Part shown: in pieces, positions 20,982 through 38,361 of the stretch | Layout of the letters: every line of letters begins with the position of its first letter | Position numbering within the stretch: position 1 is the first letter of the stretch | Source: an uncultured Candidatus Saccharibacteria bacterium | Lineage (GTDB): Bacteria; Patescibacteriota; CALEFQ01 | Length of the DNA: 64,000 nucleotides | Direction: 5' to 3' | NCBI GenBank assembly: GCA_965230955.1 | Contig: OZ246404.1 | Span: 353,184 to 417,183 of the forward strand | Made by a program: the position numbers and the translations under genes | The notes under the pieces: generated by a model | The model's database searches: none | What the model saw: the letters and a program-made list of their open reading frames with translations, nothing else | Told to the model about the DNA's origin: nothing

Positions 20982-22406
20982 ATGAAAAAAGGAACTTTTT
21001 TATGGGTTGTGGGGATGGCTATTGCCGGGGTTGGTTTATTGGCCGGTAGCGCTCAGGCGGCCAATACCATGGCGCCGGAAGTAAAAGTTTTTAATGACAA
21101 CATGTCCAGTGTCGAAAAATCCTTTTTAGCTTGGCCGGTCAGCAATCAAAACGGCTGCAGTGTGGCCGTCGGAGATATAGACGGCAACGGTTACGGTGAA
21201 ATTATTGTCGGCGCCGGCAAAGGATCCGGGCCGCAGATCAGAATTTTTTCTAAAAACGGCGTCAATCAAGGTTTGGACTTTTTCGCCTTTGCGAATGATT
21301 TTCGCGGGGGAGTATCGGTGGCGACGGGAGATGTTGATGGTGACGGCAAAGAAGAAATAATTGTCGGTCAGCGCTCAGCCGGTCAGGCGCGGGTGAAAAT
21401 TTATCGCGCTAATAAACAACATTCGATAGTGGCCGAGTGGCTGGCTTATTCCGGCAATTTCCAGGGCGGTGTCACGGTCACGGCGGGTGATTTTAACGGT
21501 GACGGCAAGGACGAGATCGCCACGGCTCCGGGAACGAGCGGCGGAGCCCAAATTAAGTTTTTTGACGGCAAAGGGAAGCCAATGGGCAAGTCATTTTTCG
21601 CTTTTGATCCAGGAGAAAAAGGCGGTGCCACTCTGGCGGCCGCTGACGTTGACGGCGACGGATCCGATGAGTTGGCCGTGGGTCATGGTCCTTTCGGAGA
21701 TCCAAGAGTCAAGCTTTATCGAATTGTCGGAAATAGCGAATTTGTCTTGGCTGATTGGCGCGCTTATGACGCCGGTTTTCGCGGTGGAGTAAAAGTGGCG
21801 GCGGGCGATTTTGACAACAACGGCAAAGAAGAAATTTTGACAGCGGCCGGCTTTGGCGGCGGACCGCAAGTGCGGGGCTGGACAGCTTCCGGGAAACTGT
21901 ATAAAATCAACCGAATGGCCTATGCGGCCGATTTCCGCGGCAGTTTAAATCTGGCGTCCGGCGACATTGATCGCGACGGAAAATTGGAAATCGTTACTGT
22001 TCCCGATCGACGCCTGGGTGAAGGCCGACTGGATTATTTCCGTTATATCGATGTCAGTTTGGGTGAACAGCGCCTGCGGGCATTTGAGAACGGTGAATTG
22101 GTCCGAACATATTTGGTTTCTACCGGCACGGCTAAACATCCGACCCCGACCGGAACTTTCCATATCCAGGGACACACTCTATCTACCAGAATGGCTTGGG
22201 TATACGGTCCCGATAATCCGGATAACTACGATTTGCCCAATGTTCCTCATGTCATGCCCATTAGCGGTCCGATTACGATTCACGGCGCTTATTGGCACCA
22301 TAATTTCGGTCACGTGATGAGCCACGGGTGTATCAATGAACCTTTGGATCAAGCTGCCTGGTTATACTCCTGGGCGCGCAATGGAGATACGGTAATAGTA
22401 CATTAA
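20982..22406 (+). CDS. Secreted FG-GAP-repeat protein fused to L,D-transpeptidase (YkuD) domain
   Basis: Signal peptide, FG-GAP repeats (GDIDGNGYGEII etc.), C-terminal YkuD catalytic motif HGxxxxxxSHGCIN. Confidence 0.7.
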   Translation: MKKGTFLWVVGMAIAGVGLLAGSAQAANTMAPEVKVFNDNMSSVEKSFLAWPVSNQNGCSVAVGDIDGNGYGEIIVGAGKGSGPQIRIFSKNGVNQGLDFFAFANDFRGGVSVATGDVDGDGKEEIIVGQRSAGQARVKIYRANKQHSIVAEWLAYSGNFQGGVTVTAGDFNGDGKDEIATAPGTSGGAQIKFFDGKGKPMGKSFFAFDPGEKGGATLAAADVDGDGSDELAVGHGPFGDPRVKLYRIVGNSEFVLADWRAYDAGFRGGVKVAAGDFDNNGKEEILTAAGFGGGPQVRGWTASGKLYKINRMAYAADFRGSLNLASGDIDRDGKLEIVTVPDRRLGEGRLDYFRYIDVSLGEQRLRAFENGELVRTYLVSTGTAKHPTPTGTFHIQGHTLSTRMAWVYGPDNPDNYDLPNVPHVMPISGPITIHGAYWHHNFGHVMSHGCINEPLDQAAWLYSWARNGDTVIVH

Positions 22407-22500: not shown

Positions 22501-24123
22501 ATGTCTTCTCGACGCCGACTTTTTACTACCCTTATCATGATCGCCATTGTCGTGGCGCTGTGTTTGATTGTGGATTTGCCGCGCGGGCCGGATTTTGATT
22601 GGTCAAAATTAGGGATGAAGGCCAAAGAAGGCGAAACCGAAGAAAGTTTAAAAGTTCCGATAAAAGTTCATTTGGGTCTGGATCTCCAGGGCGGCAGCCA
22701 GTTGATTTATCAGGCGGATTTGGGAAATGTTAAAACTGAGGATCGGGCCGAAGCGATGGCGGGTGTGCGCGATGTGATCGAACGCCGGGTAAACCTTTTT
22801 GGTGTTTCCGAGCCTATTATTCAGGTTTCCGGCCAAGATCGCTTGATCGTGGAATTGGCCGGTATTAAGGATATAGACCAGGCGATTGCCGCTATCGGCG
22901 AAACGCCCACGCTGGAATTTATGGAAGAAGCCGAAGAGGCTTCGGGGGTTCAGCTGGATACGTCAGCCGAAGGGGTGACGGTGGAAAGCCAGCCGGCCGA
23001 GAATCAGGCCGAACGTTCTACGGAAACTCCGCGTGCTTCTATCCGACGCTTGGCGGCGGAAACGACTGCCACCGGCGACACAAATACCGATCAACCGGCG
23101 GCGGTTCCCGAAGAGGCCTTGCCGGAATTAACTCCCGAAGAATTAGAGCAAATAAAAAGCCAATTACAAGACAGCGAAGGGAATCCGATAGACTTGAGCG
23201 CTTTGCAACAGCCGCAGTTCAACCCGACGGGATTGAGCGGTAAAAATTTAACTCGCGCCACAGTGGTTTTTCAGCAGCAAGGAGTCGGGTCTCCGCAGGT
23301 TTCTCTGGAATTTGACGATGAGGGGCGGAAACTTTTTGCCGAAATTACCGAACGCAGCGTCGGCAAGCGCGTAGCTATTATGATCGACGGCGTGATTATC
23401 AGCGCGCCGGTGGTGCAGGAAAAGATTACCGAGGGCAATGCGGTCATTACCGGAAATTTCACGGTTGATGAAGCCAAAGAATTAGCGCGTAATTTAAATC
23501 AAGGCGCCCTCCCGGTGCCGATCAATCTGGTCAGCCGGCAAACAGTCGGTGCCACTCTGGGTCAGGAATCCGTACAAAAGAGTCTCGTGGCCGGGATTAT
23601 CGGTTTGATTGCCGTCGCCGTTTTCATGATCGGTTTTTATCGTTTCCCTGGATTGCTCGCGACCGCTTCACTGCTGATTTATGCCGTTATCGCTCTGGCG
23701 ATTTTTAAGCTGATACCGGTGACCTTGACGCTGGCGGGCGTGGCCGGTTTTATTATGTCAATCGGTATGGCCGTCGATGCCAACGTGCTGATTTTTGAAC
23801 GTTTGCGAGAAGAATTGCGCGAAGGCAAGGATTTGAGCCTGGCGATTGAAAATGGTTTTCGGGGAGCCTGGAGCTCGATTCGCGATTCGAATATTTCCTC
23901 GATCATTACTTGTATCATCCTTTATGCTTTTGGCAGCAGCTTAGTCAAAGGTTTTGCCTTGACGCTGGGTATCGGCGTGGTGGTCAGTATGTTCACGGCT
24001 ATTACGGTGACCAGAACTTTCCTGAGATTATCCAGCACAAAATTGTCCCAGAAGCACTTAAGCTGGTTTGATTTCCCCAAGCGTCTGCCCCAATCTACTC
24101 CGGCCAAAGCCGTCAAAGATTAA
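22501..24123 (+). CDS. secD: Protein translocase subunit SecD
   Basis: SecD periplasmic domain and C-terminal 6-TM region. Confidence 0.85.
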   Translation: MSSRRRLFTTLIMIAIVVALCLIVDLPRGPDFDWSKLGMKAKEGETEESLKVPIKVHLGLDLQGGSQLIYQADLGNVKTEDRAEAMAGVRDVIERRVNLFGVSEPIIQVSGQDRLIVELAGIKDIDQAIAAIGETPTLEFMEEAEEASGVQLDTSAEGVTVESQPAENQAERSTETPRASIRRLAAETTATGDTNTDQPAAVPEEALPELTPEELEQIKSQLQDSEGNPIDLSALQQPQFNPTGLSGKNLTRATVVFQQQGVGSPQVSLEFDDEGRKLFAEITERSVGKRVAIMIDGVIISAPVVQEKITEGNAVITGNFTVDEAKELARNLNQGALPVPINLVSRQTVGATLGQESVQKSLVAGIIGLIAVAVFMIGFYRFPGLLATASLLIYAVIALAIFKLIPVTLTLAGVAGFIMSIGMAVDANVLIFERLREELREGKDLSLAIENGFRGAWSSIRDSNISSIITCIILYAFGSSLVKGFALTLGIGVVVSMFTAITVTRTFLRLSSTKLSQKHLSWFDFPKRLPQSTPAKAVKD

Positions 24124-25078: not shown

Positions 25079-25107
25079 TTGACTATTACCAGCCCTTGTG
25101 ATATATT
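25079..25107 (+). promoter_or_regulatory. Sigma-70-type promoter TTGACT-17-TATATT
   Basis: Near-consensus -35 and -10 with 17-nt spacing upstream of the 25189 gene. Confidence 0.55.
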
Positions 25108-25188
25108 CTCTTTGCTGGAGTGCGAACCCCGGTACCTATATTTTGTAGGTCTATATTTGTCTTAAATAAGCTATTTTATTATAAAAAC

Positions 25189-26295
25189 ATGGATACCCAG
25201 AAGTCAATTCTTGATGAAGTGTTATCTTCGCAAGACGAACAATTACTACAAAATTTTGATCCGTTAGCGTCTGTTATGGCGCTACTTAAGACCGTGGATA
25301 ATCGCGGAGCGGATATTATTATCAAACGTTACAGCTTGGATGGCAAGCCGTCTCGTACTTTGGAAGAGATCGGCCAGTCATATCAGGTCACGCGCGAGCG
25401 GGTGCGTCAAATTGAATCCGCGACCATTGCCGAACTGCAAAAAAAGCAAGCCGATTTGGAAGACATGGTTCGGGTGATTTTGTCTATGTTGCAGATGTAT
25501 GGCCAGGTGATGGAAGAAAATCATTTGCTCGATTCCTTGCTGGCGGAACGGGAAAAGCGCGAAGCGGATCGCAGTGCCACCTTGTTTGTTTTGGATTTAA
25601 GCGATCATTTTAAGCATTTTCCGGAAACGACGGAAACAAACAAAGCTTGGGGCACATCGGAGGCGACGCTGGAAGTTCCCAAAAAATTAGTGGAAGCTTT
25701 TGTCGAAATTTTAAACAATCAGAAACAGCCTATTCCTCATGATCAAGTTGCGGCGCATTTGGTCAAGCATCCGCTGTATCAAAAGCATGCCGCCGGCTTG
25801 CCGGAATCGGCTATTACCGCTCATTTAGCCGTCAGCAAAAAAGTTCGGCGCAATCCCTTCAATGAGTGGGGCATGACCAATTGGTCCCAAATCGCGCCCA
25901 AAGGGGTGAAAGACAAGGCCTACGTTGTTTTGCACAAGGCCGGAAAGCCCCTTCATTTTGTTGATATTGCTAAAAGTATTGATGATACCGGTTTTGATCG
26001 CAAAAAAGCTCATCCCCAAACGGTGCACAATGAATTGATCAAAGATAAGCGGTTTGTCCTGGTGGGGCGAGGTATTTATGCCTTGGGTGAATGGGGTTAT
26101 GAACCCGGTACGGTAGCGGATGTTTTGGAAAAAATCATTCGCAAAGCGGGGAAACCGCTGGATCGCGATAGCTTGATCGAGGCGGTGGAAAAACAGCGCA
26201 TTGTCAAAAAAAATACCGTTTTGCTAGGTTTACAAAACAAAGATCGCTTTGTGAAGCTTCCTGATGGCCGTTTTTCGGTCGTTGACAAAAAGTAG
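25189..26295 (+). CDS. Sigma-70 region-4-like HTH protein with C-terminal domain of unknown function
   Basis: TLEEIGQSYQVTRERVRQIESATIAELQKK matches the sigma-70 region 4.2 HTH; the remaining roughly 300 aa are unrecognised. Confidence 0.55.
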   Translation: MDTQKSILDEVLSSQDEQLLQNFDPLASVMALLKTVDNRGADIIIKRYSLDGKPSRTLEEIGQSYQVTRERVRQIESATIAELQKKQADLEDMVRVILSMLQMYGQVMEENHLLDSLLAEREKREADRSATLFVLDLSDHFKHFPETTETNKAWGTSEATLEVPKKLVEAFVEILNNQKQPIPHDQVAAHLVKHPLYQKHAAGLPESAITAHLAVSKKVRRNPFNEWGMTNWSQIAPKGVKDKAYVVLHKAGKPLHFVDIAKSIDDTGFDRKKAHPQTVHNELIKDKRFVLVGRGIYALGEWGYEPGTVADVLEKIIRKAGKPLDRDSLIEAVEKQRIVKKNTVLLGLQNKDRFVKLPDGRFSVVDKK

Positions 26296-26344
26296 CTCCT
26301 TGGCGCTGTTTTTGGTATAATTAGCGGATAGGTCAAACAAAAAC

Positions 26345-27655
26345 ATGCTCAATATTTTTGGTATACTAAAAACTAGTTTCATCGAAACATTCACGACCGG
26401 ACCGTTTGTTTATATTTGGTTTGTTTTAGGAAAAACGTGGTGGTTATTTACCCCACTTTTTTTATTGACGGCGGCTTGGTGGTATTGGAAAGATTATATC
26501 CAGACGAAATATGTTATCGGTCTTGATTTTCGTTGCTTGTCGGTAACTGTTCCGAAAGAAGAAGAAGCCACTTCGACTCCCAAAGCTATGGAGCAGATCT
26601 TCGCCGCCGCCGCCGGCATGATGCATGGCATCAATATGGTGGAGCGGTACTGGAATGGTAATATTCAGGAATTTTTCAGCGCCGAATTGGTGGGTATCAG
26701 CGGCCATATCCGCTTCATTTTTCGGGTGCCGGCCAAGTGGCGCGATATGTTTGAGGCCAATATCTATGCCCAGTATCCCGACGCCGAAATCGTGGAAGTG
26801 GAAGATTATACGAAGCTTATTCCTAATGATTTTTTGGAAAAAGGATTCAAAGCTTGGGGATCGGAATTAAAACTGACGAAGGAAGACGCCTATCCGATCC
26901 GAACTTATCCCGAATTCGAAGAGCGTATTACTCAGGCCGTGCACGATCCGATGGCTTCGATCACGGAATTACTGAGCCGTTTCGGCCCGGGCGAACAGTT
27001 GTGGCTACAGTGGGTCTGCCGTCCGGTTTTAGGCAAAGACCACGGTTGGGTGGCCGAAGGCGAAAAATTGAAAAAGAAATTAGTCGATCAATTACCGCCT
27101 CCGCAGCAATCGGCCATACTTTCAGCTATGGGCATGCCGGCGAATATGGTCGGAAATGTTTTGGATCAGGCCATGGGGTACGAAGTCGGGGATGCTCAGC
27201 CGGAAAAGAAGGGCATGCCGTTGCTTACCCCGGATCTTTATAATGCTTTGACCGCCTTGGATCGCAGTCTAAGCAAACAGGGATTTGAAGTGAAAGGCCG
27301 GTTGTTTTATGTCGCCAAAAAAGATACTTTTTTAGTTCAGCGCGGTACAACTGGTTTCTTTGGCTATATGCAACAATTCAATACTCAAAACCTCAATGGT
27401 TTTATGCCGGACGGTCGAACCAAAACCAAAGTAGATTATTTCATGCGCGAATACCGCGAATACTGGCGCAAGCGAAGGATGCTTGATATGTGCCAGACGC
27501 GCAGTATGTGGAAAGGCGGTAAGCCGTTTATTCTCAATACCGAAGAATTGGCGACGGTTTTCCATTTCCCTTTGCCTTGGGCCAAGTCCAAGAAAATCGA
27601 ACATGTCGAGGCCAAGAAAGCCGGCCCGCCGCGCGATTTGCCGATTGCCATTTAA
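26345..27655 (+). CDS. Hypothetical membrane protein (N-terminal TM hairpin)
   Basis: Two hydrophobic helices near the N-terminus, large soluble remainder, no known motif. Confidence 0.45.
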   Translation: MLNIFGILKTSFIETFTTGPFVYIWFVLGKTWWLFTPLFLLTAAWWYWKDYIQTKYVIGLDFRCLSVTVPKEEEATSTPKAMEQIFAAAAGMMHGINMVERYWNGNIQEFFSAELVGISGHIRFIFRVPAKWRDMFEANIYAQYPDAEIVEVEDYTKLIPNDFLEKGFKAWGSELKLTKEDAYPIRTYPEFEERITQAVHDPMASITELLSRFGPGEQLWLQWVCRPVLGKDHGWVAEGEKLKKKLVDQLPPPQQSAILSAMGMPANMVGNVLDQAMGYEVGDAQPEKKGMPLLTPDLYNALTALDRSLSKQGFEVKGRLFYVAKKDTFLVQRGTTGFFGYMQQFNTQNLNGFMPDGRTKTKVDYFMREYREYWRKRRMLDMCQTRSMWKGGKPFILNTEELATVFHFPLPWAKSKKIEHVEAKKAGPPRDLPIAI

Positions 27656-27661
27656 ATTTGT

Positions 27662-29638
27662 TTGTTATTTATCAAGCCCACTATGCCTAATGCCGAAATA
27701 AATTCTTTTGGACAAACCAATTACCGCAATCGCCGGGTGGAATTTGGTATCAAACTTGATGATCGGCGCCGTCATATGTATGTGATCGGGAAAACCGGCA
27801 TGGGTAAATCCCATTTGCTGCGGCACCTGGCCTACAATGATATTCAAGCAGGGCGGGGAATCGCCTTTGTCGATCCGCACGGTGATTCCGCTGACTGGCT
27901 GTTGGAATACATTCCGGCCAGCCGGATAAATGACGTCGTGTATATCAATCCAACCGATATCGATTTTCCCATTGCCTTTAATGTGTTGGAAAAAGTTGAT
28001 CGACGCTATCACAATTTGGTGGCGGACGGTTTAGTGGGCGTTTTCAAAAAAATCTGGGCCGAATCCTGGGGACCGCGTTTGGAATATTTGATGCGCAACG
28101 CCATTTTGTCATTGTTGGACTATCAGGACAGCACTCTGCTCGGCGTGACCAGGATGCTGGTCGACAAAGCTTATCGTAAAAAAGTTATTGCTCGGGTGCA
28201 GGATCCGGTGGTCAAAGCTTTTTGGGTCGAGGAATTCGCCAAATACAACGACAAATTTTTAGTGGAAGCGATTTCTCCCATCCAAAATAAAATCGGGCAG
28301 TTTTTGGCTAATGCCGTGATTCGGAATATTGTCGGCCAGCCTCAAAGCACGATCAATATCCGCGAAATCATGGATCAGGGCAAAATACTAATCCTGAATC
28401 TTTCCAAAGGCAAAATCGGCGAGGCCAGCAGTGCTTTGCTTGGCGCCATGATTATTACCAAGCTCCAGTTGGCGGCGATGAGCCGCGCCGATATTCCCGA
28501 GGAGCAACGGCGCGATTTTTTCCTTTATGTCGATGAATTCCAAACTTTCGCGACGGAGAGTTTTGCTGATATCTTGTCCGAAGCTCGCAAGTATCGCCTC
28601 GGTTTGGTGATGGCGCATCAGTATATTGAGCAGATGCCGGAAGAAGTGGCGGCGGCGGTTTTTGGCAATGTCGGCACGTTAATCTCTTTCCGGGTGGGCG
28701 CGGCGGACGCCGAAGTCCTCGAGACCGAATTTGCTCCGGTATTTATGCAAAAAGACTTGGTTAATCTGCCCAAGTTTGGTTTCTATATTAAATTAATGAT
28801 TGATGGCGTGGCCAGTGACGGTTTTAGCGCTAATACGGTCAATATGAAATTTACTCCGACGGGGAATAAGGATAAAGTGATCCGGGTTTCGCGGGAGCGT
28901 TATGCCAATCCTCGTTCTGTCGTTGAGGAAAAAATTGCTCGCTGGAGCGGGGTTTTTGAAGGCAAGGTCGGGGTAGACAAAGATAGTTATGAAAAGGAAG
29001 ACGAGGCCCGAAATAATAAGTCCCGTTTCAAACCGGCAGTCAGCCGCCCGGTTTTGGGGCACCAGGAAAATCGTCCGGCTTCTTTTGCTCCAAAGAGTTA
29101 TCCGCCCAAGAATAATTTTTCGCGTCCGCCGATCAATCGGCCGGCGCCAACAGCGGTTAATCGAGCGTCCAACTATCAACCGGCTCCTCGACCGATCATG
29201 TCGAGTGCGCCTGCGTCTCATTCTGCTCCCGCCCCGACGCCTTATCCGAGCCAGCGTCCGGCTGTCTCTCATCCGATAGTTTCTCGTCCGGCATCTGTAT
29301 CTCCGAAACCGCGATTGTCTCCTCCTGTTTCAGCGCCTCGGCCGGTTCCGGCACCGCGGGCGAATACGAGTCCGCGTCCGGTTGTTTCATCTCGTCCAGT
29401 GTCTGCACCTTCGAAACAGCGGTCTACTCCGCCGGCGCGTCATTACCCGACACCGCCTCCTCCGATCCCGCCGCGGACCAGAATCGTTCCAAAAACCGCG
29501 AAGCCGGTAGCGACAGGGATTTCTCTGAAGGAAGCGGTCAAGCAAGGACCGCAAAGCGTGCATCAGCCCAAAATAAATAAGCCGCGCGGTGATCGCCGGC
29601 CTTTGCCCCCGGGGCAGAAGGCGGTGCTTGGTAAATAG
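27662..29638 (+). CDS. VirD4/TraG/TrwB-like (T4SS coupling-protein family) P-loop ATPase with about 230-aa Pro-rich C-terminal tail
   Basis: Walker A GKTGMGKS, FVDPHGD (like the DPKGE motif), Walker B LYVDEFQTF; C-terminus low-complexity PAP/SRP repeats. Confidence 0.55.
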   Translation: MLFIKPTMPNAEINSFGQTNYRNRRVEFGIKLDDRRRHMYVIGKTGMGKSHLLRHLAYNDIQAGRGIAFVDPHGDSADWLLEYIPASRINDVVYINPTDIDFPIAFNVLEKVDRRYHNLVADGLVGVFKKIWAESWGPRLEYLMRNAILSLLDYQDSTLLGVTRMLVDKAYRKKVIARVQDPVVKAFWVEEFAKYNDKFLVEAISPIQNKIGQFLANAVIRNIVGQPQSTINIREIMDQGKILILNLSKGKIGEASSALLGAMIITKLQLAAMSRADIPEEQRRDFFLYVDEFQTFATESFADILSEARKYRLGLVMAHQYIEQMPEEVAAAVFGNVGTLISFRVGAADAEVLETEFAPVFMQKDLVNLPKFGFYIKLMIDGVASDGFSANTVNMKFTPTGNKDKVIRVSRERYANPRSVVEEKIARWSGVFEGKVGVDKDSYEKEDEARNNKSRFKPAVSRPVLGHQENRPASFAPKSYPPKNNFSRPPINRPAPTAVNRASNYQPAPRPIMSSAPASHSAPAPTPYPSQRPAVSHPIVSRPASVSPKPRLSPPVSAPRPVPAPRANTSPRPVVSSRPVSAPSKQRSTPPARHYPTPPPPIPPRTRIVPKTAKPVATGISLKEAVKQGPQSVHQPKINKPRGDRRPLPPGQKAVLGK

Positions 29639-29639
29639 C

Positions 29640-29669
29640 TTGACTTTTCCAGGGTAATAGTGTTAGAAT
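29640..29669 (+). promoter_or_regulatory. Sigma-70-type promoter TTGACT-18-TAGAAT
   Basis: Near-consensus boxes upstream of the giant surface protein gene. Confidence 0.5.
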
Positions 29670-29778
29670 AATCAGATTTGTTGAAATTGGCTATTTGAAG
29701 CCGAAATATCGAGTTTCGAAAGAAGCCCTACTAACTTGTTATTATTTTAAGGTGGCGGAGGGGCACCGGATCATCAAT

Positions 29779-32700
29779 ATGAAATCTAAATTCCTCGCGA
29801 CCTCCAAACGAGCTATTGTTTTTGTTGTGCTCGCCGGTATGGTCATGCTTTATGGCGGACAGCCTATTTTGCAGGCGCAGGCTGAATCTCGGCCGGCTAA
29901 TCCGACGGAGAACTTAGGTGGATTTAGCTTCGGCGGTGCGAGCCAGCTTCCTGAGCTTCCGCCCGTTGCTACTCCGGCTGTAACTACGACTCAGACCGAA
30001 ACTGTCCCGGCTGTGACGCCGACTCCGGTGGTAACACCTCAGGCTACTCCGGTCGTGACTCCGACGCCGACATCGACGTCGACTCCGAAGGTTACCGTAA
30101 CACCGGCCAAAGAAGCGCCGAAAGCGGAAACAAAAAGCGAGGAACCAAAACCGATTTGGCAAGAAAACGGCCAGGGAAGTTTCACGACGACCGAGCCGGT
30201 CAAATTGGGCGAGGTTTATACTTATCCCGGCCGTAATTTGGAATTGAAATTCACTCAACTCCCGACTCTGTCCGGCAAAGTTACCATTCGCAAAGTGGCC
30301 GCGAGCGCTGTCCCGATTTCAGGCGTAGTGGGCGATGTCTATGACATTACCTCGACTATGGCTGACGGGACTTTTAAATACGAATTATCTTTGCCTTACG
30401 ATAAATCCGGTTCGAACGTCCAAGTTGTTTATTCCGAAGATGCGAAAAATTTCACCCCGGTTGAGCAGGGGAAGGTTGATGTTTTAGCTGGGGAAAAACA
30501 AGTAAAAGCGGCTGATCTGAATCATTTTACTTATTTTGCTGTTGTGAGCGGTCAGGATGCTTCAGATGGTTCGGCTCAAACTTTCAATGTTTCAGAATTG
30601 GCTGATTTGCAGACGGCTAATAATTGGTCGGGTTATGTCCAATCTGATAGTCGCTGGCCGCTCTGGAATTATGATTCCGGCAATTATATCCAGTTCAATT
30701 TGGGTTCAGTTGTACCGGCAGATGCTTCTGTCAGTGGTGCAACTTTGCATTTTCGATATGCCCGCGGGGTGATGGGGATCATTCCGTTTTTGTTTGATAC
30801 TTATGGTGCTCGGCTCCAAGCCCAAGACAGTAACGGAAACTGGGTAGATATTGCCGATGTTTGGAATGATAACTGGCTCACTTTCCGGACTTATAATGTT
30901 GATTTGACTTCATTTTTCCAAAATAATCCGACTTTGCAGAACTTGTCTATTCGTTTCCAGATGTATGGCGGAAATTTACTGTTCCCCTTTTTGGGCGGTA
31001 TGCGCAGTTATCATGATTGGGTGGGGCTTGATATACAGACGATTCCTGGTGTACCGACTATTAATCATCCTATCGAAGATTCAGTGATGATTAATTCCGC
31101 GACTACCAGCACCCATTATCTGTCGGGAACAGCCGAGCCCGGATCAACCGTAAAACTTTATATTAATGGTTCTCCGACTACCTGGACGGTGACGGCTGAT
31201 TCCAGCGGCAATTTCCTTTTCCCCAACAATATTTTAACGGCTGTCGGTATTGACTATGATTTTGACTACATGATTCCCATAGTAGCGACGGTTACTTCTT
31301 CCAATGCTGATGGGGAAAGTGCGCCCTCTCGCGGTATTAGTTATACCAAGGATACTTACGCGCCGGGTGATGTAAATTTGCTTTCACCGGCCGATGATTC
31401 TTTCGTCAATACCGATGGTTTGGTGATGGATTGGACCGACGCGGTTGATAGCAATCAACCAAACGATAGCGGTATCGCCGGTTACATCTATGAATCTTAC
31501 CGCGATGAAGCGATGACTAATTTGGCTTATCGTTCCACATTGCTGACCGAATCAGAAATCCCGGCTCCGGGCACGCCTGACGGTGATTACTGGTGGCATG
31601 TGAAATCAATTGATGTGGCGGGTAATGAAGGTCAATGGAGCACCTCCTGGCAGGTGACAGTGGATAATATCGCTCCGGCTATTCCGACCAGTCTCGGTTT
31701 CAATGTTCCTCCCGAAGGGACTCCCGATGACCGTCCGGTGGATTTGCCGTGTCCCAGTAGCCTTACCAATCAAAATCGAGTCGCGCATGTTTGGACAGAT
31801 GAATCGGCCAGCGGCGCTGTTGAATATGAACGCCAGTGGCAATATCCCGGGACGACAACCTGGCAGGGCGCGGAGCGCTGGACGACAACCAATACCGATT
31901 ATCGCGCTTTTGGCACCGACGAAGGTATTGAAGGTTATTGGAATGTCCGAGTGCGCGCGCGCGACGCGGCGAATAATTGGAGCGCCTTTGGTATGCCTTG
32001 TGCTATTACCTTGGATCGCACCGCTCCCGGAGCTCCGATTTTAGTGAGCCCGACCGACGGCACCATTCAAAACTCAAATTCAGTTTTGTATACTTGGGAA
32101 CCGGGTTCCGATCTTTCCCAGCTTGACGGTTATGAACTGTCATTGTTCTTGAACGGAGTTCCGGCGATGCAGTTCATGATTGACGATCCCGCCGATACCC
32201 AATTGCTTGTTCCTTCGGTTGACGGAGTCTGGGACTGGCAAGTTCGCAGTCAGGATTTGGCCGGTAATTTCAGTCCGTGGTCCGCTCGCTGGCAAGTTAC
32301 GGTTGATACCGTCGCTCCCGGCGCACCGGTTTTAGTTAGCCCGACCGACGACACCATTCAAAATTCCAGCCAGATTCAATATGTGTGGGAACCGGGTTCG
32401 GACATCTCCCAGCTTGACGGTTATGAATTGTCGTTGTTCCGGAACGGAGTTCCGGCCATGCAGTTTATGATCGATGATCCTTCAGTGACTCAGGTTACCG
32501 TTCCTTCGCTCGACGGCGTTTGGGACTGGCAAGTTCGCAGTCAGGATTTAGCCGGTAATTTCAGTCCGTGGTCCGCTCGCTGGCAAGTTACGGTTGATAC
32601 CGTCGCTCCCGGCGCTCCTGTTTTAGTGAGCCCGGCCGATGGCACCATCCAAAACTCAAATTCAGTTTTGTATACTTGGGAACCTGGTTCCGATATTTCA

Positions 32701-34137
32701 CAGCTTGACGGTTATGAATTGTCATTGTTCTGGAACGGTATTCCGGCGATGCAGTTTATGATTAATGATCCCGCGGTGACTCAAGTTCCCGTTCCTTCTA
32801 TCGACGGCGTTTGGGAATGGAAAGTAAGAAGCAAAGATTTGGCCGGTAATTTCAGCCCGTGGTCCGCTCGTTGGCGGGTGACGGTTGATACCGTCGCTCC
32901 CAATGCTCCGATTTTATCTGATCCGATCGATGGAGCATTGCTGGATCATTCTGATGTTACTTTGAAATGGAATCAGGAGCCCCGCACCTTGCTAAACAAA
33001 GTCTCGGTCTTATCGATTGACACCTTTGAAGTCGATGTTGATGGTGTTGTTACTTCCGGTGTTACCGCCAATGAATTATCGGGAAGCTTTGCCGATGGTC
33101 AGCACCATTGGAAAGTTCGCGCTAAAGATGCGGCCGGCAATTATAGTGACTGGAGTGCCACCTGGTCGTTTACGGTTGACACTACTGCTCCTGGTACACC
33201 GGCTCTAATCAATCCGCCTCATGAATCATTGCTTAACTACAATAATGTTAATCTCGACTGGACCGATGTCACAGATAATATCGGCTTGGCCGGCTATGAA
33301 TTAGAGATTAATTCTACCGCTTTGGGTTTATCGCCGGTTACATCCTGGATTGATTCCACCGTTTCACAATTCCAGACTGTTGGTTTGCCGGATGGTGTTT
33401 ACAGCTGGAGAGTTCGCGCCAAAGATAATGCCGGCCATTACAGTAATTGGAGCGAAACCCGGACATATACCGTCGATAGAACGGCTCCGGCGGCTCCGAC
33501 CGGCGTCCAGGCAACTTACATTTCCTCCGGTACCGTGCAGGTTAGCTGGGATGCCGTGTCAGATGCGGATCATTATGTGATTTACCGCAATGGGGTCAAA
33601 ATTGCCGAAGTTCGCGGCGCGACTACGTATAATGATTCTGGTTTGAGCGAGACTAAACATGAATACTATGTCTCGGCGGTTGACGCGGCTGGCAACGAAG
33701 GAGCCCAAGGCGGACCGGGTGCAATCGATTTGTCGCCGACGCCGACGACCGGTCCGACCTCAACTTCTCCGACAACCGGTCCCCGAACCACTACCGGTTT
33801 GACGACCGGCGGCACGGTACTCGGCGTGACTACCGGAACGACCGGTGCCCTGTTGACTGATTTCGGCACTGGCCTTGATACCGGTTCGGCGTTCTCTGGC
33901 GAAGGTACTGTCTCCGGCGCGGAAGATGAGGCGATTGGTGAAGAAGGCAGTGATGACGGACAAGTGGCCGGTGCTGAGACTTCCGATCTGAAGGCGGCCG
34001 CGGCCGACCAGGTCAATACCGGTTCGGATCAAAGTTGGTGGCAAACTTGGTGGTTCTGGCTCCTGCTGATTATTGCCGTCATTCTGATTACTTGGTTGAT
34101 TGCCAAACGCCGCAAAAAAGATGATGAGATAAGATAG
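29779..34137 (+). CDS. Giant cell-surface protein with Thr/Pro-rich linker, repeated Fn3/Ig-like domains and C-terminal membrane anchor
   Basis: Signal peptide (MKSKFLATSKRAIVFVVLAGMVM). Repeated roughly 97-aa modules each starting VDTxAPGxP. C-terminal hydrophobic segment plus KRRKKDDEIR tail. Confidence 0.7.
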   Translation: MKSKFLATSKRAIVFVVLAGMVMLYGGQPILQAQAESRPANPTENLGGFSFGGASQLPELPPVATPAVTTTQTETVPAVTPTPVVTPQATPVVTPTPTSTSTPKVTVTPAKEAPKAETKSEEPKPIWQENGQGSFTTTEPVKLGEVYTYPGRNLELKFTQLPTLSGKVTIRKVAASAVPISGVVGDVYDITSTMADGTFKYELSLPYDKSGSNVQVVYSEDAKNFTPVEQGKVDVLAGEKQVKAADLNHFTYFAVVSGQDASDGSAQTFNVSELADLQTANNWSGYVQSDSRWPLWNYDSGNYIQFNLGSVVPADASVSGATLHFRYARGVMGIIPFLFDTYGARLQAQDSNGNWVDIADVWNDNWLTFRTYNVDLTSFFQNNPTLQNLSIRFQMYGGNLLFPFLGGMRSYHDWVGLDIQTIPGVPTINHPIEDSVMINSATTSTHYLSGTAEPGSTVKLYINGSPTTWTVTADSSGNFLFPNNILTAVGIDYDFDYMIPIVATVTSSNADGESAPSRGISYTKDTYAPGDVNLLSPADDSFVNTDGLVMDWTDAVDSNQPNDSGIAGYIYESYRDEAMTNLAYRSTLLTESEIPAPGTPDGDYWWHVKSIDVAGNEGQWSTSWQVTVDNIAPAIPTSLGFNVPPEGTPDDRPVDLPCPSSLTNQNRVAHVWTDESASGAVEYERQWQYPGTTTWQGAERWTTTNTDYRAFGTDEGIEGYWNVRVRARDAANNWSAFGMPCAITLDRTAPGAPILVSPTDGTIQNSNSVLYTWEPGSDLSQLDGYELSLFLNGVPAMQFMIDDPADTQLLVPSVDGVWDWQVRSQDLAGNFSPWSARWQVTVDTVAPGAPVLVSPTDDTIQNSSQIQYVWEPGSDISQLDGYELSLFRNGVPAMQFMIDDPSVTQVTVPSLDGVWDWQVRSQDLAGNFSPWSARWQVTVDTVAPGAPVLVSPADGTIQNSNSVLYTWEPGSDISQLDGYELSLFWNGIPAMQFMINDPAVTQVPVPSIDGVWEWKVRSKDLAGNFSPWSARWRVTVDTVAPNAPILSDPIDGALLDHSDVTLKWNQEPRTLLNKVSVLSIDTFEVDVDGVVTSGVTANELSGSFADGQHHWKVRAKDAAGNYSDWSATWSFTVDTTAPGTPALINPPHESLLNYNNVNLDWTDVTDNIGLAGYELEINSTALGLSPVTSWIDSTVSQFQTVGLPDGVYSWRVRAKDNAGHYSNWSETRTYTVDRTAPAAPTGVQATYISSGTVQVSWDAVSDADHYVIYRNGVKIAEVRGATTYNDSGLSETKHEYYVSAVDAAGNEGAQGGPGAIDLSPTPTTGPTSTSPTTGPRTTTGLTTGGTVLGVTTGTTGALLTDFGTGLDTGSAFSGEGTVSGAEDEAIGEEGSDDGQVAGAETSDLKAAAADQVNTGSDQSWWQTWWFWLLLIIAVILITWLIAKRRKKDDEIR
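32011..32883 (+). repeat. Three tandem 291-bp (97-aa) near-identical intragenic repeats
   Basis: Period measured between recurring gttgataccgtcgctcccgg at 32302, 32593 and 32884; copy 1 begins 32011. Confidence 0.8.
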
Positions 34138-34152
34138 TCGGTAATTATAGAA

Positions 34153-34182
34153 GGCGCTCCTCGAAATCGGGGAGCGCTTTTG
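34153..34182 (+). terminator. Terminator after surface protein gene
   Basis: Hairpin gcgctcc...ggagcgc followed by tttt. Confidence 0.5.
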
Positions 34183-34218
34183 GTAAATAAAAAACCCATG
34201 TTTGGCAACATGGGTTGG
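34183..34218 (-). terminator. Terminator of purF-like gene
   Basis: Stem aacccatgtt/aacatgggtt followed on minus strand by ttttatttac. Confidence 0.6.
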
Positions 34219-34230
34219 GGAACGAGATTG

Positions 34231-35697
34231 TTAGAATGGTCGTGGTCCGCCGATGCAGAAAGTGCAGAAATCATCGAGACTGCGACCAAATTGGTGATAG
34301 ACCGCGGCCAGATCAGCGAGGGGCAATTGTCTTACGGTCATATGCAGGGCCTGGCAAATCTGATCTTCACTCCGGTTGCGCGAGATGAATGCTCCTTCGG
34401 GGTGCATGTCGACACCGAAGTTGCATCCGCGCGGCAGTCCATCCGATCCGATGATGCCGACTGGCGGAGTATAGCTGAGGAAGATTACTTTTTTCACTCC
34501 GGCTTCTTGGCAGAGGATTTCTTTGACGCGCCGACTGTTATTGCCCCGGACAATGCTGTCATCAATGACGATGACGGTTTTGCCTTTGAGAAAAGAGCGG
34601 GAGTTGTAGACGATCGGATTCTCGGAAATCATGTACGTGATTTCCAGACTGGGCAGCAGATTTAGATTGCGCTTGATCGATTCTCGCCGGCTCCGGGGAG
34701 TGGATCCGATAAAAGACCTTTCTTGATTCGCTTTGTAGAAAATGTTGGCGAAAGGCAGGCCCAGTTCCGCCGCATAGGCGAGGGCGGCCGGTTCGGGACA
34801 GCGCGGCAGGTAAGTGACCAGGTCGGCTCCCGGGAAAGGAAAGCGGCGCGCCAGTGCTTGGCCGAGCAGTCGACGAATGTTATGGATCGGAATACCATCG
34901 ACGGTCGAGCCCGGGTGTGAGAAGTAGTGGAGCTCAAAAAAACAAAGATGGTGCGATCCGACAGCGACTTGGCGATGGGGGCCGCAGCGGCCGTCGGGAT
35001 AGAGATAGTAGATTGATCCCGGTTCCAAATCTTCGATCAATCTTGCCCCGTTTTTCCGGAAAGCGATATCCTCCGAAGCCATTACGAACATGTTGTCTTT
35101 TTGGCCCAGCACTCCCGGCCTGATGCCGGTCTGGTCCCGCAAGACAATGGTTTTGCTTGTTCGGATATCAACATAGGCTAGGGTGTACGATCCGGGAATG
35201 GTGCGGAGCGTCTGGTCGGGTCCGTTTTGCCGGATGAAGTGGAGTAATCGTTCGGAATCGCAATCGGTGGTGATCCGGCGGCAATCGATTGACCCCAAAT
35301 GTTCCGCGGCAACTTCGCCGTTGTGAATCAGGGCCATTTCGGCATTTGAGATGAAGAGATGGTCGCCATGGTCTTCGATTTCTCCGCCGATAACATGGGG
35401 ATGTCCCGATTCCAGGAGCTGTCGCGGAATTTTCTCGCCCTGAGTGGCGTAACGAACATGCCCTCCGAAAGTGTGAAATTCGCGTCCGGTCGAGAAAATT
35501 TTGTGCATGTCGGTCAGGTCGAATACCCGTTTGGGCGGGCCCAGCCACTTAAGGCAGAAAATTTTGCCGTCAGTCGCTTGACCGTAAATTCCGGTCACTT
35601 CCTGTCCGCGGTGCGACAGGGAATAAAGGAAATTGTAACAGTCATGCAAAGTGTGAGTCACGCAAATGCCACACTTGCATTGCACTAAATCACTCAT
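34231..35697 (-). CDS. purF: Amidophosphoribosyltransferase-like (class-II glutamine amidotransferase + PRTase)
   Basis: N-terminal Cys (CGI), PRTase motif VIVIDDSIVRGNNSRRV, GIDMHPE-like C-terminal region. Confidence 0.65.
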   Translation of the reverse strand: MSDLVQCKCGICVTHTLHDCYNFLYSLSHRGQEVTGIYGQATDGKIFCLKWLGPPKRVFDLTDMHKIFSTGREFHTFGGHVRYATQGEKIPRQLLESGHPHVIGGEIEDHGDHLFISNAEMALIHNGEVAAEHLGSIDCRRITTDCDSERLLHFIRQNGPDQTLRTIPGSYTLAYVDIRTSKTIVLRDQTGIRPGVLGQKDNMFVMASEDIAFRKNGARLIEDLEPGSIYYLYPDGRCGPHRQVAVGSHHLCFFELHYFSHPGSTVDGIPIHNIRRLLGQALARRFPFPGADLVTYLPRCPEPAALAYAAELGLPFANIFYKANQERSFIGSTPRSRRESIKRNLNLLPSLEITYMISENPIVYNSRSFLKGKTVIVIDDSIVRGNNSRRVKEILCQEAGVKKVIFLSYTPPVGIIGSDGLPRGCNFGVDMHPEGAFISRNRSEDQICQALHMTVRQLPLADLAAVYHQFGRSLDDFCTFCIGGPRPF

Positions 35698-35785
35698 GAG
35701 TACCTCCTATTCTCTGTGGTTGTGAATTTACAACTGATCAGGGTATCTTAGCGCTGTTAACGGTTCTAGGTCAAGGCAAACTAGT

Positions 35786-36367
35786 CTATTTTTGGGCTCG
35801 GACGAAAAATCTTTTCAAATCTGTCCCATTGGGCCAGCAGGTGACAAGAGTTATTTCGTTGACGTCATCATCCGGCGCTCGAAATACCTCGGTAGAATTT
35901 TTCCCGACGGTCCGGCGTTCGGTGACAGAGTAGCGATAAACGATGTCTTCATAATGAATGACGATTTCATCGCCAATTTCCAGTTTTTCCAGCAGGGTGA
36001 AAACGGTATTATAATCACTGGCTTGCCACCAATAATTTGAGCTATGTCCGATATATACCCCGTTTCCGATTTGGGTGGGGAGCGGAGTTTCGGGGTGATG
36101 AACCACTCCGTGAAGCAAGAGCGGCGCCAGATTGTCTTTTTGCGAATCATCAGATAGAATGAGCGGAGCGCGAAGCTTAATAGCCGGTATTTCGATATAG
36201 TTTTGATCAGCTATCAGCCGGTTTTCCGGCAGGGTATCAGTCAGATACCTCCATTGGATAGTCAGTATCGGCCAGTTGATAAAAAGGTAAGAACTCAAAA
36301 TTGCCAGGGCGAAAAGCGAGGCAAAAAAAGTGGAATTTTTGAGCAATGATTGACGCTGAATATCCAT
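35786..36367 (-). CDS. Sortase-family transpeptidase
   Basis: N-terminal TM anchor, TLVTCWP motif containing catalytic Cys. Confidence 0.7.
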   Translation of the reverse strand: MDIQRQSLLKNSTFFASLFALAILSSYLFINWPILTIQWRYLTDTLPENRLIADQNYIEIPAIKLRAPLILSDDSQKDNLAPLLLHGVVHHPETPLPTQIGNGVYIGHSSNYWWQASDYNTVFTLLEKLEIGDEIVIHYEDIVYRYSVTERRTVGKNSTEVFRAPDDDVNEITLVTCWPNGTDLKRFFVRAQK

Positions 36368-36511: not shown

Positions 36512-37285
36512 ATGAATGAAACTCTCAAAATTAAAAGCGTCACCGGCCACTTGCTCGATAATCAATTGAGCTGGCCGAAAGGGAAAAAACGTCCCGTCCC
36601 GCTGGTTATTTTGTGCCACGGCTTTTTGGCGCACAGCCAGCTCTTGTTTTTCCCGGCTCTCAAACGGCTTTTGCATTATTACGGCTATGCTGTTTTTTCC
36701 TATGATTTTCCCGGCCATGGATTTTCTCCAGGAAGCAAAAGCGAGGTGACCTTGCCTCGTAATATCAAGGATTTGCATAACATAATTAATGCTTTGGAAA
36801 AGGACGATCGACTGAATCTGTCGCGGCTGATTGTGATCGGGCATAGTTTGGGCGGCATTACGGCTTTGATGTCGGGGGTAACTGATCGCCGTATCAAACG
36901 GATCGTGGCTATCGGAGCAGCTTTGAATTTTGAAGAAGCGGTTCGCCAACTGCTGGCTAACGGTAAAATGTTTTATCGGGATGGTACCATTTATTTTCAG
37001 TTTTCCAAGATGTTTCCGGCTCAGCGCTGTGATAAGACGCTTTGGTCTTATACCAATAAATTTAATTTCAAGGATCGGGCCGAAAAAATCAAAGCGGCGG
37101 TTTTGATGATCGCGGGGGAGAAGGATGATATTATTCCTCTTAAACTGACTCAAGAAACCTATCGCCGTCTGTCGGGTGTGAAAAAAATAACCGTGATCAA
37201 AAAATGCGGTCACTTATTTATCGCTCCAAGCCATCAACGGCAGTTGTTTCGAGCAATAATCAAATGGCTAAAACCGCGAAGATAA
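36512..37285 (+). CDS. Alpha/beta-fold hydrolase
   Basis: GHSLGG nucleophile elbow (GxSxG), HGF oxyanion region. Confidence 0.7.
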   Translation: MNETLKIKSVTGHLLDNQLSWPKGKKRPVPLVILCHGFLAHSQLLFFPALKRLLHYYGYAVFSYDFPGHGFSPGSKSEVTLPRNIKDLHNIINALEKDDRLNLSRLIVIGHSLGGITALMSGVTDRRIKRIVAIGAALNFEEAVRQLLANGKMFYRDGTIYFQFSKMFPAQRCDKTLWSYTNKFNFKDRAEKIKAAVLMIAGEKDDIIPLKLTQETYRRLSGVKKITVIKKCGHLFIAPSHQRQLFRAIIKWLKPRR

Positions 37286-38361
37286 AATCCAAGGGAAAAA
37301 TTCTTTGTGCCATGTCCGGCGGGGTAGATAGTTCCGTGGCGGCGGCTTTGTTATTAAAGCAAGGCTATGAAGTTATCGGTGTTTTTATGAAGTTCTGGCA
37401 TCCGGGGGAGTCGGTCACCGGCGGGGAGAATGTTTGTTGTTCTTCGGAATCATATCGCGAGGCTCAAAAAGTCGCCCGGGTTCTGGGTATAAAGCTCTAT
37501 ACGCTCAATTTTGAAAAGCCGTTCAAAAAGCTAGTCGTCGATGATTTTTTGAGCCAATATCAGCAGGGACAAACACCCAATCCCTGTATCCGATGCAATG
37601 AGAAAATAAAATTCGGCTTATTGCTGGTCAAGGCGCGACAGCTAAAAATACCGCTGGTGGCGACGGGTCATTATGCTCAGGTAAAAAAAGTCGCCGGGCG
37701 GGTAGAGTTGCGGCGCGGGCGCGATCGGCAAAAAGACCAGTCATATTTTCTATATCGTCTGACGCCGGCTCAGCTCCGGTACGTGATTTTTCCGGTCGGC
37801 CGATATACCAAGCCGCAGGTGCGCCAAATGGCGGCCAAATTTTTCTTGCCGACGGCTACTCGGCGGGAAAGCCAGGAAGTTTGTTTCGTGCCGGGAGCCG
37901 ATACCCGTTCTTTTCTGAAAAAATATTTGAAAATGAAACCCGGTTTAATTGTTTCCCGGCAAGGCGAATCACTGGGGCGGCACGAAGGCTTGCCTCTTTA
38001 TACCTTGGGACAGCGCCGAGGAGTGGTGGGAGGGCTGAAGCATCCTTATTTTGTGTGCGGAAAAGATGCCGCGCGCAATACTCTGGTGGTAACCGATCAA
38101 CCGGCCGATTTGTTAAGTGATACTTTTACGGTTGGTGATCTTAATTGGATTTCTGCGCCGGTCAAATTTCCTTTCTCGGCCAAAGTGAAAATACGTTATG
38201 GGGCGCCTGCGAGTATGGCGGTGATTAGTCGATCGGGTCCTCGAGTGTCGGTAAAATTTAAGCACAAACAAAGAGCCGTAACGCCCGGGCAATCGGCGGT
38301 ATTTTATCAAGGCGAAAAAATACTCGGAGGCGGAATTATCGATGAAGGAGGACGAAAATGA
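37264..38361 (+). CDS. mnmA: tRNA-specific 2-thiouridylase
   Basis: PP-loop CAMSGGVDSSVAA, MnmA C-terminal domains; ends with TGA. Confidence 0.85.
   Translation: MAKTAKIKSKGKILCAMSGGVDSSVAAALLLKQGYEVIGVFMKFWHPGESVTGGENVCCSSESYREAQKVARVLGIKLYTLNFEKPFKKLVVDDFLSQYQQGQTPNPCIRCNEKIKFGLLLVKARQLKIPLVATGHYAQVKKVAGRVELRRGRDRQKDQSYFLYRLTPAQLRYVIFPVGRYTKPQVRQMAAKFFLPTATRRESQEVCFVPGADTRSFLKKYLKMKPGLIVSRQGESLGRHEGLPLYTLGQRRGVVGGLKHPYFVCGKDAARNTLVVTDQPADLLSDTFTVGDLNWISAPVKFPFSAKVKIRYGAPASMAVISRSGPRVSVKFKHKQRAVTPGQSAVFYQGEKILGGGIIDEGGRK

Follow-up and report, generated by a model that had tools for sequence, protein, structure and literature searches.

The closest described relatives of the system considered here are ATPases of type IV secretion systems (T4SS). 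In the type IV coupling proteins (T4CPs; VirD4, TrwB and TraD) an N-terminal transmembrane domain is joined in one polypeptide to a P-loop motor with an all-alpha domain and a variable C-terminal tail. In VirB4 proteins (e.g. TrwK of R388, the TrsD and TrsE pair of pGO1, and VirB3-VirB4) a membrane anchor, an N-terminal domain (N-domain) and a P-loop motor are arranged colinearly. Coupling proteins that lack a membrane domain and pair with a membrane partner are also a recognised class, as exemplified by TraJ/TraI of pIP501 (PMC7431656). A recent survey reports T4CP homologues in 2,918 of 3,035 Patescibacteria genomes and VirB4 in 2,417 of them (~80%), with only 148 of 5,713 T4CP homologues located near virB4 (Quinonero-Coronel et al. 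2025, PMC12102498). In the parts of the survey drawn on here, the T4SS clusters of this phylum usually have no T4CP of their own, the role of the orphan T4CP homologues is left open, their exaptation is raised as a possibility and no membrane-protein partner is reported for them. Here we analyse a stretch of 64,000 nucleotides from an uncultured Candidatus Saccharibacteria bacterium (contig OZ246404.1, positions 353,184 to 417,183), referred to as the window, in which an ATPase of this kind is encoded directly behind a membrane protein of the family DUF8128.

We propose that these two proteins are the halves of a split, membrane-tethered ATPase that has the architecture of VirB4 and a translocation motor of the coupling-protein type, with DNA or nucleoprotein as the favoured cargo. 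We regard this reading as reasonably probable. The parts of the pair are as follows, with lengths in amino acids (aa).

26345-27655, + strand: DUF8128 (PF26449) gene, 436 aa; membrane helix and cytoplasmic domain
27683-28951, + strand: motor domain of the ATPase, aa 1-423; Pfam, PDB sequence comparison, hhalign, AlphaFold2 (AF2) model and Foldseek
28952-29638, + strand: Pro-rich C-terminal tail of the ATPase, 228 aa, disordered; composition and motifs

The two genes travel together. Relatives of all window proteins were located by tblastn in 80 species-level loci carrying DUF8128, the best 80 of at least 579 matches. Across these ~80 Patescibacteria species the order is SecD-SecF-[sigma-r4/HARE-HTH]-DUF8128-ATPase...MnmA, where the bracketed gene encodes a protein with a sigma-70 region-4 (r4) domain that is described further below. 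The ATPase gene lies directly 3′ of DUF8128 in 69 of the 75 loci with enough flank, and the estimated gap between the two has a median of only ~6 bp, with many overlaps; it measures 27 bp in the window, and a 4-bp overlap is found in two closed-size contigs. This adjacency is consistent with a suggestion made in an initial annotation of this DNA, that the upstream membrane protein is the partner of the ATPase. The sigma-r4/HARE-HTH gene is directly 5′ of DUF8128 in 50 of the 75 loci, at a wider estimated gap of ~88 bp, and SecF is found no more than 2.5 kb upstream of DUF8128 in 44 of 63. The six loci where the ATPase does not adjoin DUF8128 are L023, L054, L062, L064, L072 and L081, four of which are labelled Magasanikbacteria; L062 has a diverged ATPase copy 5 kb away on the other strand.

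The pair is also part of a larger and very stable arrangement. The window is a core housekeeping block made up of Mur ligases, FtsW, MurG, MurC, MurB, SecA, SecDF, the three genes just named, MnmA, alanyl-tRNA synthetase (AlaRS), an FtsA-like protein, RpoA and MurA, and the same block order is kept in distant genomes of at least 1 Mb. The homologues of DUF8128, the ATPase and the sigma-r4/HARE-HTH gene all come from Patescibacteria (the Candidate Phyla Radiation, CPR). The ATPase is the best-conserved gene of the block, with a median identity across species of 64%, compared with 54% for SecD, 47% for SecF and 43% for MnmA, and its alignment contains well over 100 invariant columns. No gene for VirB4, VirB6, a pilin or a relaxase was found in the window or in the ~80 flanks of related loci. 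The pair is vertically inherited within the housekeeping block (mur/fts - secA - secDF - pair - mnmA - alaS), outside any T4SS cluster. The earlier idea of an adaptation to a reduced genome gives way to conservation of the gene pair throughout the phylum.

The initial annotation had grouped five genes into one functional unit, a surface or secretion module: the sigma-r4 gene, the membrane protein, the ATPase, a giant adhesin and a sortase. All five are present in the open reading frame (ORF) map and in profile searches, and the first three are syntenic elsewhere, the second and third tightly so, but the adhesin and the sortase never recur there. Because only DUF8128 and the ATPase are robustly linked across loci, and the adhesin and sortase are absent elsewhere, the five-gene module is not a unit. 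The real unit is DUF8128 plus the ATPase, 26345-29638.

A further line of evidence comes from large Bacillus phages, where true homologues of both halves are found in a single polypeptide. The phage protein family PHROG 5156 (phrog_5156) matches DUF8128 at profile positions 75-204 and the ATPase at 393-805 (E 1e-60). One of its members, gp156 of Bacillus phage G (825 aa), carries both halves: residues 17-322 align with the whole DUF8128 cytoplasmic domain, the LNxxE...HxP motif included (hhalign probability 97.4, E 9e-12, 301 columns), and residues 378-787 align with the ATPase (hhalign probability 99.9, E 6.5e-36; tblastn 30% identity, E 1e-43). Unlike the Patescibacteria pair, gp156 and the 911-913-aa structural homologues in SPO1-like phages are fused, have no N-terminal membrane helix and are phage-encoded. 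In phage G (L086, 2238-6380) the gene directly upstream of the fused gp156 encodes gp155, a VirB4 homologue (match 4ag5, 5e-13). The homologue in phage CP-51 (L087, 2753-5488) is encoded beside a nicking replication initiator, and the 911-913-aa proteins of SPO1-like phages have both such an initiator and a partition gene as neighbours.

A fusion probably exists within the phylum too. In S. epibionticum the protein SEML1_0293 is 921 aa long with its TrwB domain at 402-719 and a TrwB/P-loop start at ~361-402. Its gene comes directly downstream of SEML1_0294, and a separate DUF8128 gene is missing at this junction (Wang et al. 2023, PMC10633639). Judging by these domain coordinates, SEML1_0293 is probably a DUF8128-ATPase fusion of the Saccharimonadia. 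No true fusion was found among 74 of the loci examined here. A 1016-aa ORF in L032 that seemed to join the two genes was rejected as an artefact of a masked run of Ns in the public contig (~6650-6760); such runs call for caution in automated fusion detection.

The ATPase itself (651 aa, 27683-29638) has its P-loop motif GKTGMGKS at residue 36, VDPHGD at 63 and YVDEFQ at 282. As the initial annotation had noted, it has no membrane anchor: no hydrophobic window reaches the threshold, and the maximum of the hydropathy profile (Kyte-Doolittle, KD19, 1.43) falls inside the fold. Two Pfam models match above their cut-offs, TrwB_AAD_bind (PF10412; 30.7 bits, cut-off 20.5) and DUF87 (29.7 bits, cut-off 23.2), and AAA_10 stays under its own (15.4 bits, cut-off 27.5). 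In sequence comparison with the PDB the best matches are TrwB (2.7e-9) and DotL (4e-6), and the match to HerA is not significant (E 0.17). The alignment to TrwB by hhalign runs from Walker A through Walker B (probability 95.6, 266 columns). The AF2 model (pLDDT 74) has a RecA-like core and, modelled at low confidence, a helical insert (about aa 107-231) that may correspond to the all-alpha domain of T4CPs; the hhalign alignment to TrwB spans this region. When the model was compared with known structures by Foldseek, HerA, Cagbeta and DotL were returned at similar E-values, with the best TM-score for Cagbeta/VirD4 (TMq 0.59).

Taken by sequence, then, the ATPase groups with TrwB and not with FtsK or HerA, in agreement with the initial annotation, which had called it coupling-protein-like and had named a grouping with HerA or FtsK as the result that would count against it. 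We place the ATPase in the VirB4/VirD4 branch of the FtsK-HerA superfamily, nearest to the TrwB-type coupling proteins. Within the VirB4 group itself the hhalign comparisons give a match to R388 TrwK that is confined to the P-loop (probability 2.8) and a longer match to the VirB4-like TrsE of pGO1 (probability 74.5, 95 columns); the VirD4-like TrsK scores 9.5. A soluble ATPase of this type had been described as unusual, whereas the TraJ/TraI class has the same layout, an ATPase without a membrane segment and a membrane protein encoded immediately upstream. A literature search combining CPR with TrwB or HerA returned nothing specific.

Behind the motor comes the Pro-rich tail of about 230 aa that had been pointed out earlier; it comprises 228 aa with 22% Pro and no Cys. 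Its presence is confirmed, but it is a lineage-specific version of a more general feature: across the family the tails are variable, disordered linkers, which in most lineages carry a treble-clef Zn finger (PF23477, zf_Tbcl_2). Nearly all of them contain the motif ISLxEA..P..F and end in PG(E/Q)V(V/I)(K/R)F. The tail in the window keeps ISLKEA and has lost the Zn finger. Together with a PPxNLP motif in DUF8128, these short motifs look like docking peptides for partners. Antisense to the tail there is a 159-aa Arg-rich ORF (28793-29272, - strand), which is a compositional artefact and no gene.

A motor that is tethered to the membrane and carries a long low-complexity linker is reminiscent of FtsK/SpoIIIE, members of the same superfamily. 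The pair might accordingly be read as an FtsK-like DNA pump, which replaces or supplements FtsK/SpoIIIE in chromosome segregation or dimer resolution, and the dcw/fts genes in the block, the very high conservation and the disordered linker with its possibly DNA-binding Zn finger would fit such a role. However, the hhalign alignment to the E. coli FtsK motor (residues 801-1329) covers the P-loop only (27 columns, probability 38), the linker comes after the motor, the anchor is on another polypeptide, and the orthologue in S. epibionticum is non-essential by transposon sequencing (Tn-seq; PMC10633639). A separate ftsK is annotated in Saccharibacterium TM7x. Given this ftsK and the alignment restricted to the P-loop, we have set aside the ATPase as a replacement for FtsK, and we consider a DNA pump of this kind improbable.

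The resemblance to HerA raises another possibility, that of a defence-type module directed against phages or plasmids, as in HerA-NurA, SIR2-HerA or MADS systems. The DUF87 score passes its cut-off, Foldseek ranks HerA structures among its top matches, and the PADLOC model mad8 of the MADS defence system matches the ATPase at 1.4e-18, more strongly than any Pfam model, with several HerA models matching too. This suggests that relatives of the motor are used in defence islands, though there is no defence context here. No methyltransferase, nuclease, NurA, SIR2 or other effector is encoded nearby; the partner is a membrane protein, and DUF8128 has no PADLOC match. The fixed position in a core block of nearly all Patescibacteria is also at odds with the patchy, island-like distribution of defence genes, and essentially nothing was found in viral contigs: one fragment of 43 residues was all that matched the DUF8128 profile in a scan of the IMG/VR contigs. 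We have set the mad8/HerA reading aside on gene context and hold it to be extremely unlikely.

The partner of the ATPase, DUF8128, is a bitopic membrane protein by hydropathy and by its AF2 model, with one N-terminal hydrophobic helix (residues ~20-50) followed by a cytoplasmic domain of ~375 aa. In 30 of 37 DUF8128 proteins the hydrophobicity near the N-terminus peaks at 1.6 or more on the same scale. The family is large, with at least 3681 cluster representatives for its profile; a precomputed PF26449 match is recorded for 119 of the 120 homologues listed, and among the best 120 matches with a source name only Patescibacteria and the generic 'uncultured bacterium' appear. The cytoplasmic alpha/beta domain has many invariant residues, a conserved EELATxFHFP and the C-terminal PPxNLP, which is conserved at the terminus and sometimes duplicated. 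No papers were found in a literature search for 'DUF8128'.

The predicted fold of the cytoplasmic domain is what connects DUF8128 to VirB4. The AF2 model is of good quality (pLDDT 82, pTM 0.77), and all 13 Foldseek matches in the PDB with an E-value of at most 1e-3 are chains of R388 TrwK/VirB4 (TrwK 1e-4), the next different fold being ~100-fold weaker. In BFVD the matches are phage G gp156 (7.8e-16), the SPO1-like 913-aa protein, gp155 (6.8e-6) and a 'type IV transporter component'. The TM-scores are modest, at 0.34-0.52. At the sequence level no link to VirB4 or TrsD was detected: hhalign of the DUF8128 profile was negative against TrwK, pGO1 TrsD, phage G gp155 and the N-terminal half of CP-51 gp91, the profile found nothing among PDB sequences or in a Pfam copy without the PF26449 model, and tblastn of DUF8128 against phage genomes gave no match. 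From the structural models, the cytoplasmic domain likely has the fold of a VirB4-type N-domain. A comparison with VirB6, ComEC and TadB had been recommended for this protein; its single-helix anchor and predicted VirB4-type fold are unlike any of these.

We therefore propose, from the fold and from the gene coupling, that DUF8128 is the membrane anchor and N-domain of a split ATPase. Anchor, N-domain and P-loop motor then follow each other colinearly, as they do in VirB4, and this two-domain architecture appears only when both gene products are taken together. A similar layout is seen in pGO1, where the sequence record has trsC (annotated as a hypothetical protein), trsD and trsE in series, with trsD directly upstream of the VirB4-like trsE. 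In the portion of the survey that deals with these genes, trsC is VirB3-like by profile grouping and trsD is like the VirB4 N-domain (PMC12102498). TrsD and TrsE are a precedent for an N-domain and a motor encoded separately. The differences from VirB4 are also clear: the motor fails to align with the C-terminal domain of TrwK past the P-loop, DUF8128 has no sequence similarity to TrwK or TrsD, and no other T4SS components are encoded nearby.

A mechanism can be sketched on this basis. DUF8128 would bind the ATPase, tether it and organise it as a hexamer at the cytoplasmic face of the membrane. Hydrolysis of ATP by the motor (Walker A GKTGMGKS, Walker B VDEFQ) would drive the hand-over or threading of a substrate, which may be recruited by the helical insert and the long disordered tail, with its short motifs and, in most lineages, its Zn finger. 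The process would be dispensable in laboratory co-culture. DNA or nucleoprotein is favoured as the cargo because of the precedent of the family, the Zn finger, the neighbouring genes for DNA binding or processing, and the phage neighbours (the nicking initiator and the partition gene). This preference is a weak one.

The main rival to this reading is that the pair is an ordinary T4CP with a separate anchor, acting in trans on a chromosomal T4SS located elsewhere and delivering protein effectors or DNA through it to the host bacterium. The ATPase is a T4CP homologue by Pfam, PDB and hhalign comparisons, with a P-loop motor best matched to TrwB and DotL and a variable C-terminal tail. The T4SS clusters of Patescibacteria usually come without a T4CP, as mentioned above, and VirB4 is found in 80% of the genomes. 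A VirB4-like N-domain could dock at the VirB4 positions of a T4SS, and the fused homologue of phage G adjoins a VirB4 homologue.

Several observations argue against it. Published Tn-seq data from S. epibionticum classify SEML1_0293 as non-essential, although its normalised reads drop from 5817 to 2940 to 1372 over passages, whereas the T4SS genes of the same organism (SEML1_0006-0019), ~270 kb away, are essential (PMC10633639). The homologues occur in more genomes than VirB4 does (2,918 and 2,417 by the survey's counts, PMC12102498). The pair is encoded with neither a T4SS nor a relaxase, in the window or the ~80 flanks, and it is inherited strictly vertically, phylum-wide, in a housekeeping block with unusually high conservation. 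Apart from these arguments, the layout differs from that of typical T4CPs in that the N-terminal transmembrane domain is not on the ATPase polypeptide; the anchor is on DUF8128, which is a 436-aa protein with the predicted VirB4-type N-domain fold and not a small anchor. We consider an ordinary T4CP acting in trans rather unlikely, if a serious candidate.

Some points weigh against the split translocase that we prefer. The match of the ATPase to TrsK is weak and that to TrsE intermediate, and its placement inside the VirB4/VirD4 clade is therefore tentative. Its helical insert is modelled at low confidence (pLDDT 52-70), and by Foldseek E-value the HerA proteins equal the coupling proteins. 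The sample of loci is biased toward relatives of this genome. The fusion in the Saccharimonadia was deduced from domain coordinates and not from sequence, and the leaning towards DNA draws on family precedent, the Zn finger, the neighbours and the phage context.

The genes around the pair are given below, with the sites and the conserved flanks of the block.

22501-24123, + strand: secD, conserved upstream flank of the block; SecD_SecF_C Pfam matches in relatives
to 25015, + strand: secF, conserved upstream flank; tblastn synteny and SecD_SecF_C Pfam matches in relatives
25079-25107, + strand: predicted promoter-like site 5′ of the sigma-r4/HARE-HTH gene; sigma-70-like consensus match
25189-26295, + strand: sigma-r4/HARE-HTH gene, 368 aa; Pfam
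29640-29669, + strand: predicted promoter-like site 5′ of the adhesin; consensus match
29779-34137, + strand: giant surface protein (adhesin), 1452 aa; Pfam modules, signal peptide and sorting signal
34231-35697, - strand: purF-like class-II glutamine amidotransferase/phosphoribosyltransferase (PRTase); TIGR01134, 160 bits
35786-36367, - strand: sortase, 193 aa; Pfam Sortase, TIGR01076 and TLVTC
36512-37285, + strand: alpha/beta hydrolase, lineage-specific, adjoining the sortase
37204-38361, + strand: mnmA, conserved downstream flank; directly 3′ of the ATPase in many genomes

The sigma-r4/HARE-HTH gene is conserved too, but its link with the DUF8128-ATPase pair is looser. Its ORF spans 25120-26295 with a likely ATG at 25189, and the 368-aa product is identical to the database protein P0241. 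The r4 domain had been thought to be the only recognisable part of this protein; Pfam also detects a HARE-HTH domain (E 7.3e-11) besides Sigma70_r4 (E 4.6e-10), which occupies aa 33-85 of the 368-aa product (aa 56-108 when counted from the start of the ORF) and is followed by HARE-HTH. The r4 domain is nearest to region 4 of SigA/RpoD, the HARE-HTH domain resembles the delta subunit of RNA polymerase, and more than 7800 homologues are known from Patescibacteria. There is no match to sigma region 2 and all NCBIfam sigma scores are far under their cut-offs; lacking region 2, the protein is therefore no sigma factor. The strong promoter that had been claimed upstream corresponds to a promoter-like site (25079-25107; TTGACT-17-TATATT with an upstream TG, 10 of 12 positions matching), of which the position holds and the strength reduces to a consensus match. 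A literature search on HARE-HTH and sigma gave nothing specific. The S. epibionticum orthologue SEML1_0294, which has Sigma70_r4 and HARE-HTH, has been assigned further winged-helix domains and is essential by Tn-seq, and both SEML1_0294 and SEML1_0293 are flagged as core and Patescibacteria-enriched families (PMC10633639). This essentiality makes a general role in transcription or DNA binding more probable than that of a dedicated adaptor; the protein probably binds RNA polymerase or DNA and has a broader, essential function. No copy of the gene stands between secF and DUF8128 in L018, L023, L028-L030, L035, L036, L039, L040 and others, including some loci labelled Uhrbacteria and Magasanikbacteria.

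On the other side of the pair, between the ATPase and mnmA, this lineage has four inserted genes of its own: the adhesin, the purF-like gene, the sortase and the hydrolase. By tblastn they are found in none of the 80 related loci, and at family level or beyond no other Patescibacteria locus examined has the adhesin or the sortase here. Two close relatives allow the insertions to be dated. The relative at 72% identity (L091) has the ATPase, a small ORF, the sortase, the hydrolase and mnmA, with neither adhesin nor purF; the relative at 93% (L092) has the adhesin as well, and in both of them the hydrolase adjoins the sortase. The purF-like gene scores 160 bits with TIGR01134, below the cut-off of 350. 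It is intact in the window and is called as three ORFs in the 93% relative (L092, 17685-19953), which suggests that it is decaying there. It lies between the adhesin and the sortase and is convergent with the adhesin, with a hairpin at 34193-34216 separating the two convergent genes.

The adhesin (1452 aa) has a signal peptide and Big_13/fn3 Ig-like modules, three of which are near-identical 97-aa copies encoded by 3.1 tandem copies of a 291-bp unit. Its C-terminal anchor, described earlier, is borne out: the LPXTG-like sequence QVNTG precedes a membrane helix rich in Trp and a terminal RRKK, and no other protein of the window ends in this way. The sorting motif (window 33990-34137) is QVNTG here and LVKTG in L092 (17290-17592), and these are candidate recognition motifs for the neighbouring Patescibacteria sortase. 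The sortase itself is well supported (PF04203, 72.3 bits, E 3.8e-20; TIGR01076, 50.1 bits, cut-off 39.35), with TLVTC at residue 173 and an N-terminal membrane helix. A promoter-like site of its own (29640-29669; TTGACT-18-TAGAAT with TG, 10 of 12 matches) makes the adhesin likely to be a separate transcription unit. The adhesin and the sortase are probably a cell-surface anchoring pair in their own right, apart from the ATPase.

These observations bear on the functional model of the initial annotation, in which the soluble ATPase drives the adhesin out of the cell or onto its surface, where the sortase anchors it. The genes are close together here and in the 93% relative, and a C-terminus resembling a sorting signal next to a sortase gene is suggestive. 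That said, sortase substrates leave the cell by Sec, not by FtsK/HerA-type ATPases, and the adhesin has a Sec-type signal peptide besides its own promoter-like site. The sortase gene runs in the opposite direction and lies beyond an unrelated gene, the 72% relative has the sortase and the hydrolase with no adhesin, and the adhesin, purF-like gene and sortase do not accompany the pair in any of the 80 other species loci. Such a model now appears very improbable.

The block has other lineage-specific features. Two genes between secA and secD (19238-22406, + strand) encode secreted proteins with FG-GAP repeats that are joined to a polysaccharide deacetylase and a YkuD L,D-transpeptidase domain; this protein pair is lineage-specific and common to the 72% and 93% relatives. 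Further downstream, the AlaRS ORF (41618-43948, + strand; 776 aa) contains a histidine-phosphatase domain (His_Phos_1) at aa 221-391 that splits the class-II catalytic domain, whereas AlaRS in other Patescibacteria loci is 625-637 aa long and has no His_Phos_1. No tRNA or Rfam element was found in the window.

What is new in this work is the view of the orphan ATPase and a partner with the predicted VirB4 N-domain fold as one machine, fused in phages and probably in the Saccharimonadia. The ATPase of this machine is more conserved than SecD, and the pair sits in a core housekeeping block. A coupling-protein homologue that is near-universal in Patescibacteria and located far from the T4SS, whose role the survey leaves open in the parts used here (PMC12102498), is hereby given a dedicated membrane partner. 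A vague annotation becomes a defined two-component target that is open to experiment in S. epibionticum (SEML1_0293/0294), a species amenable to genetics, and a wrong link to the adhesin and sortase is corrected.

The pair also bears on the evolution of the VirB4/VirD4 ATPases. We tentatively raise the possibility that it represents a third lineage of the VirB4/VirD4 clade, a split translocase that is independent of T4SS, universal to Patescibacteria and has fused relatives in large Bacillus phages. If so, the combination of a VirB4-type N-domain with a coupling-type motor could reflect the ancestral state before VirB4 and VirD4 separated. Patescibacteria make up a large share of bacterial diversity and live off material from host cells; were the third lineage real, the pair could be the missing motor for the import or export of DNA or nucleoprotein at the interface between epibiont and host.

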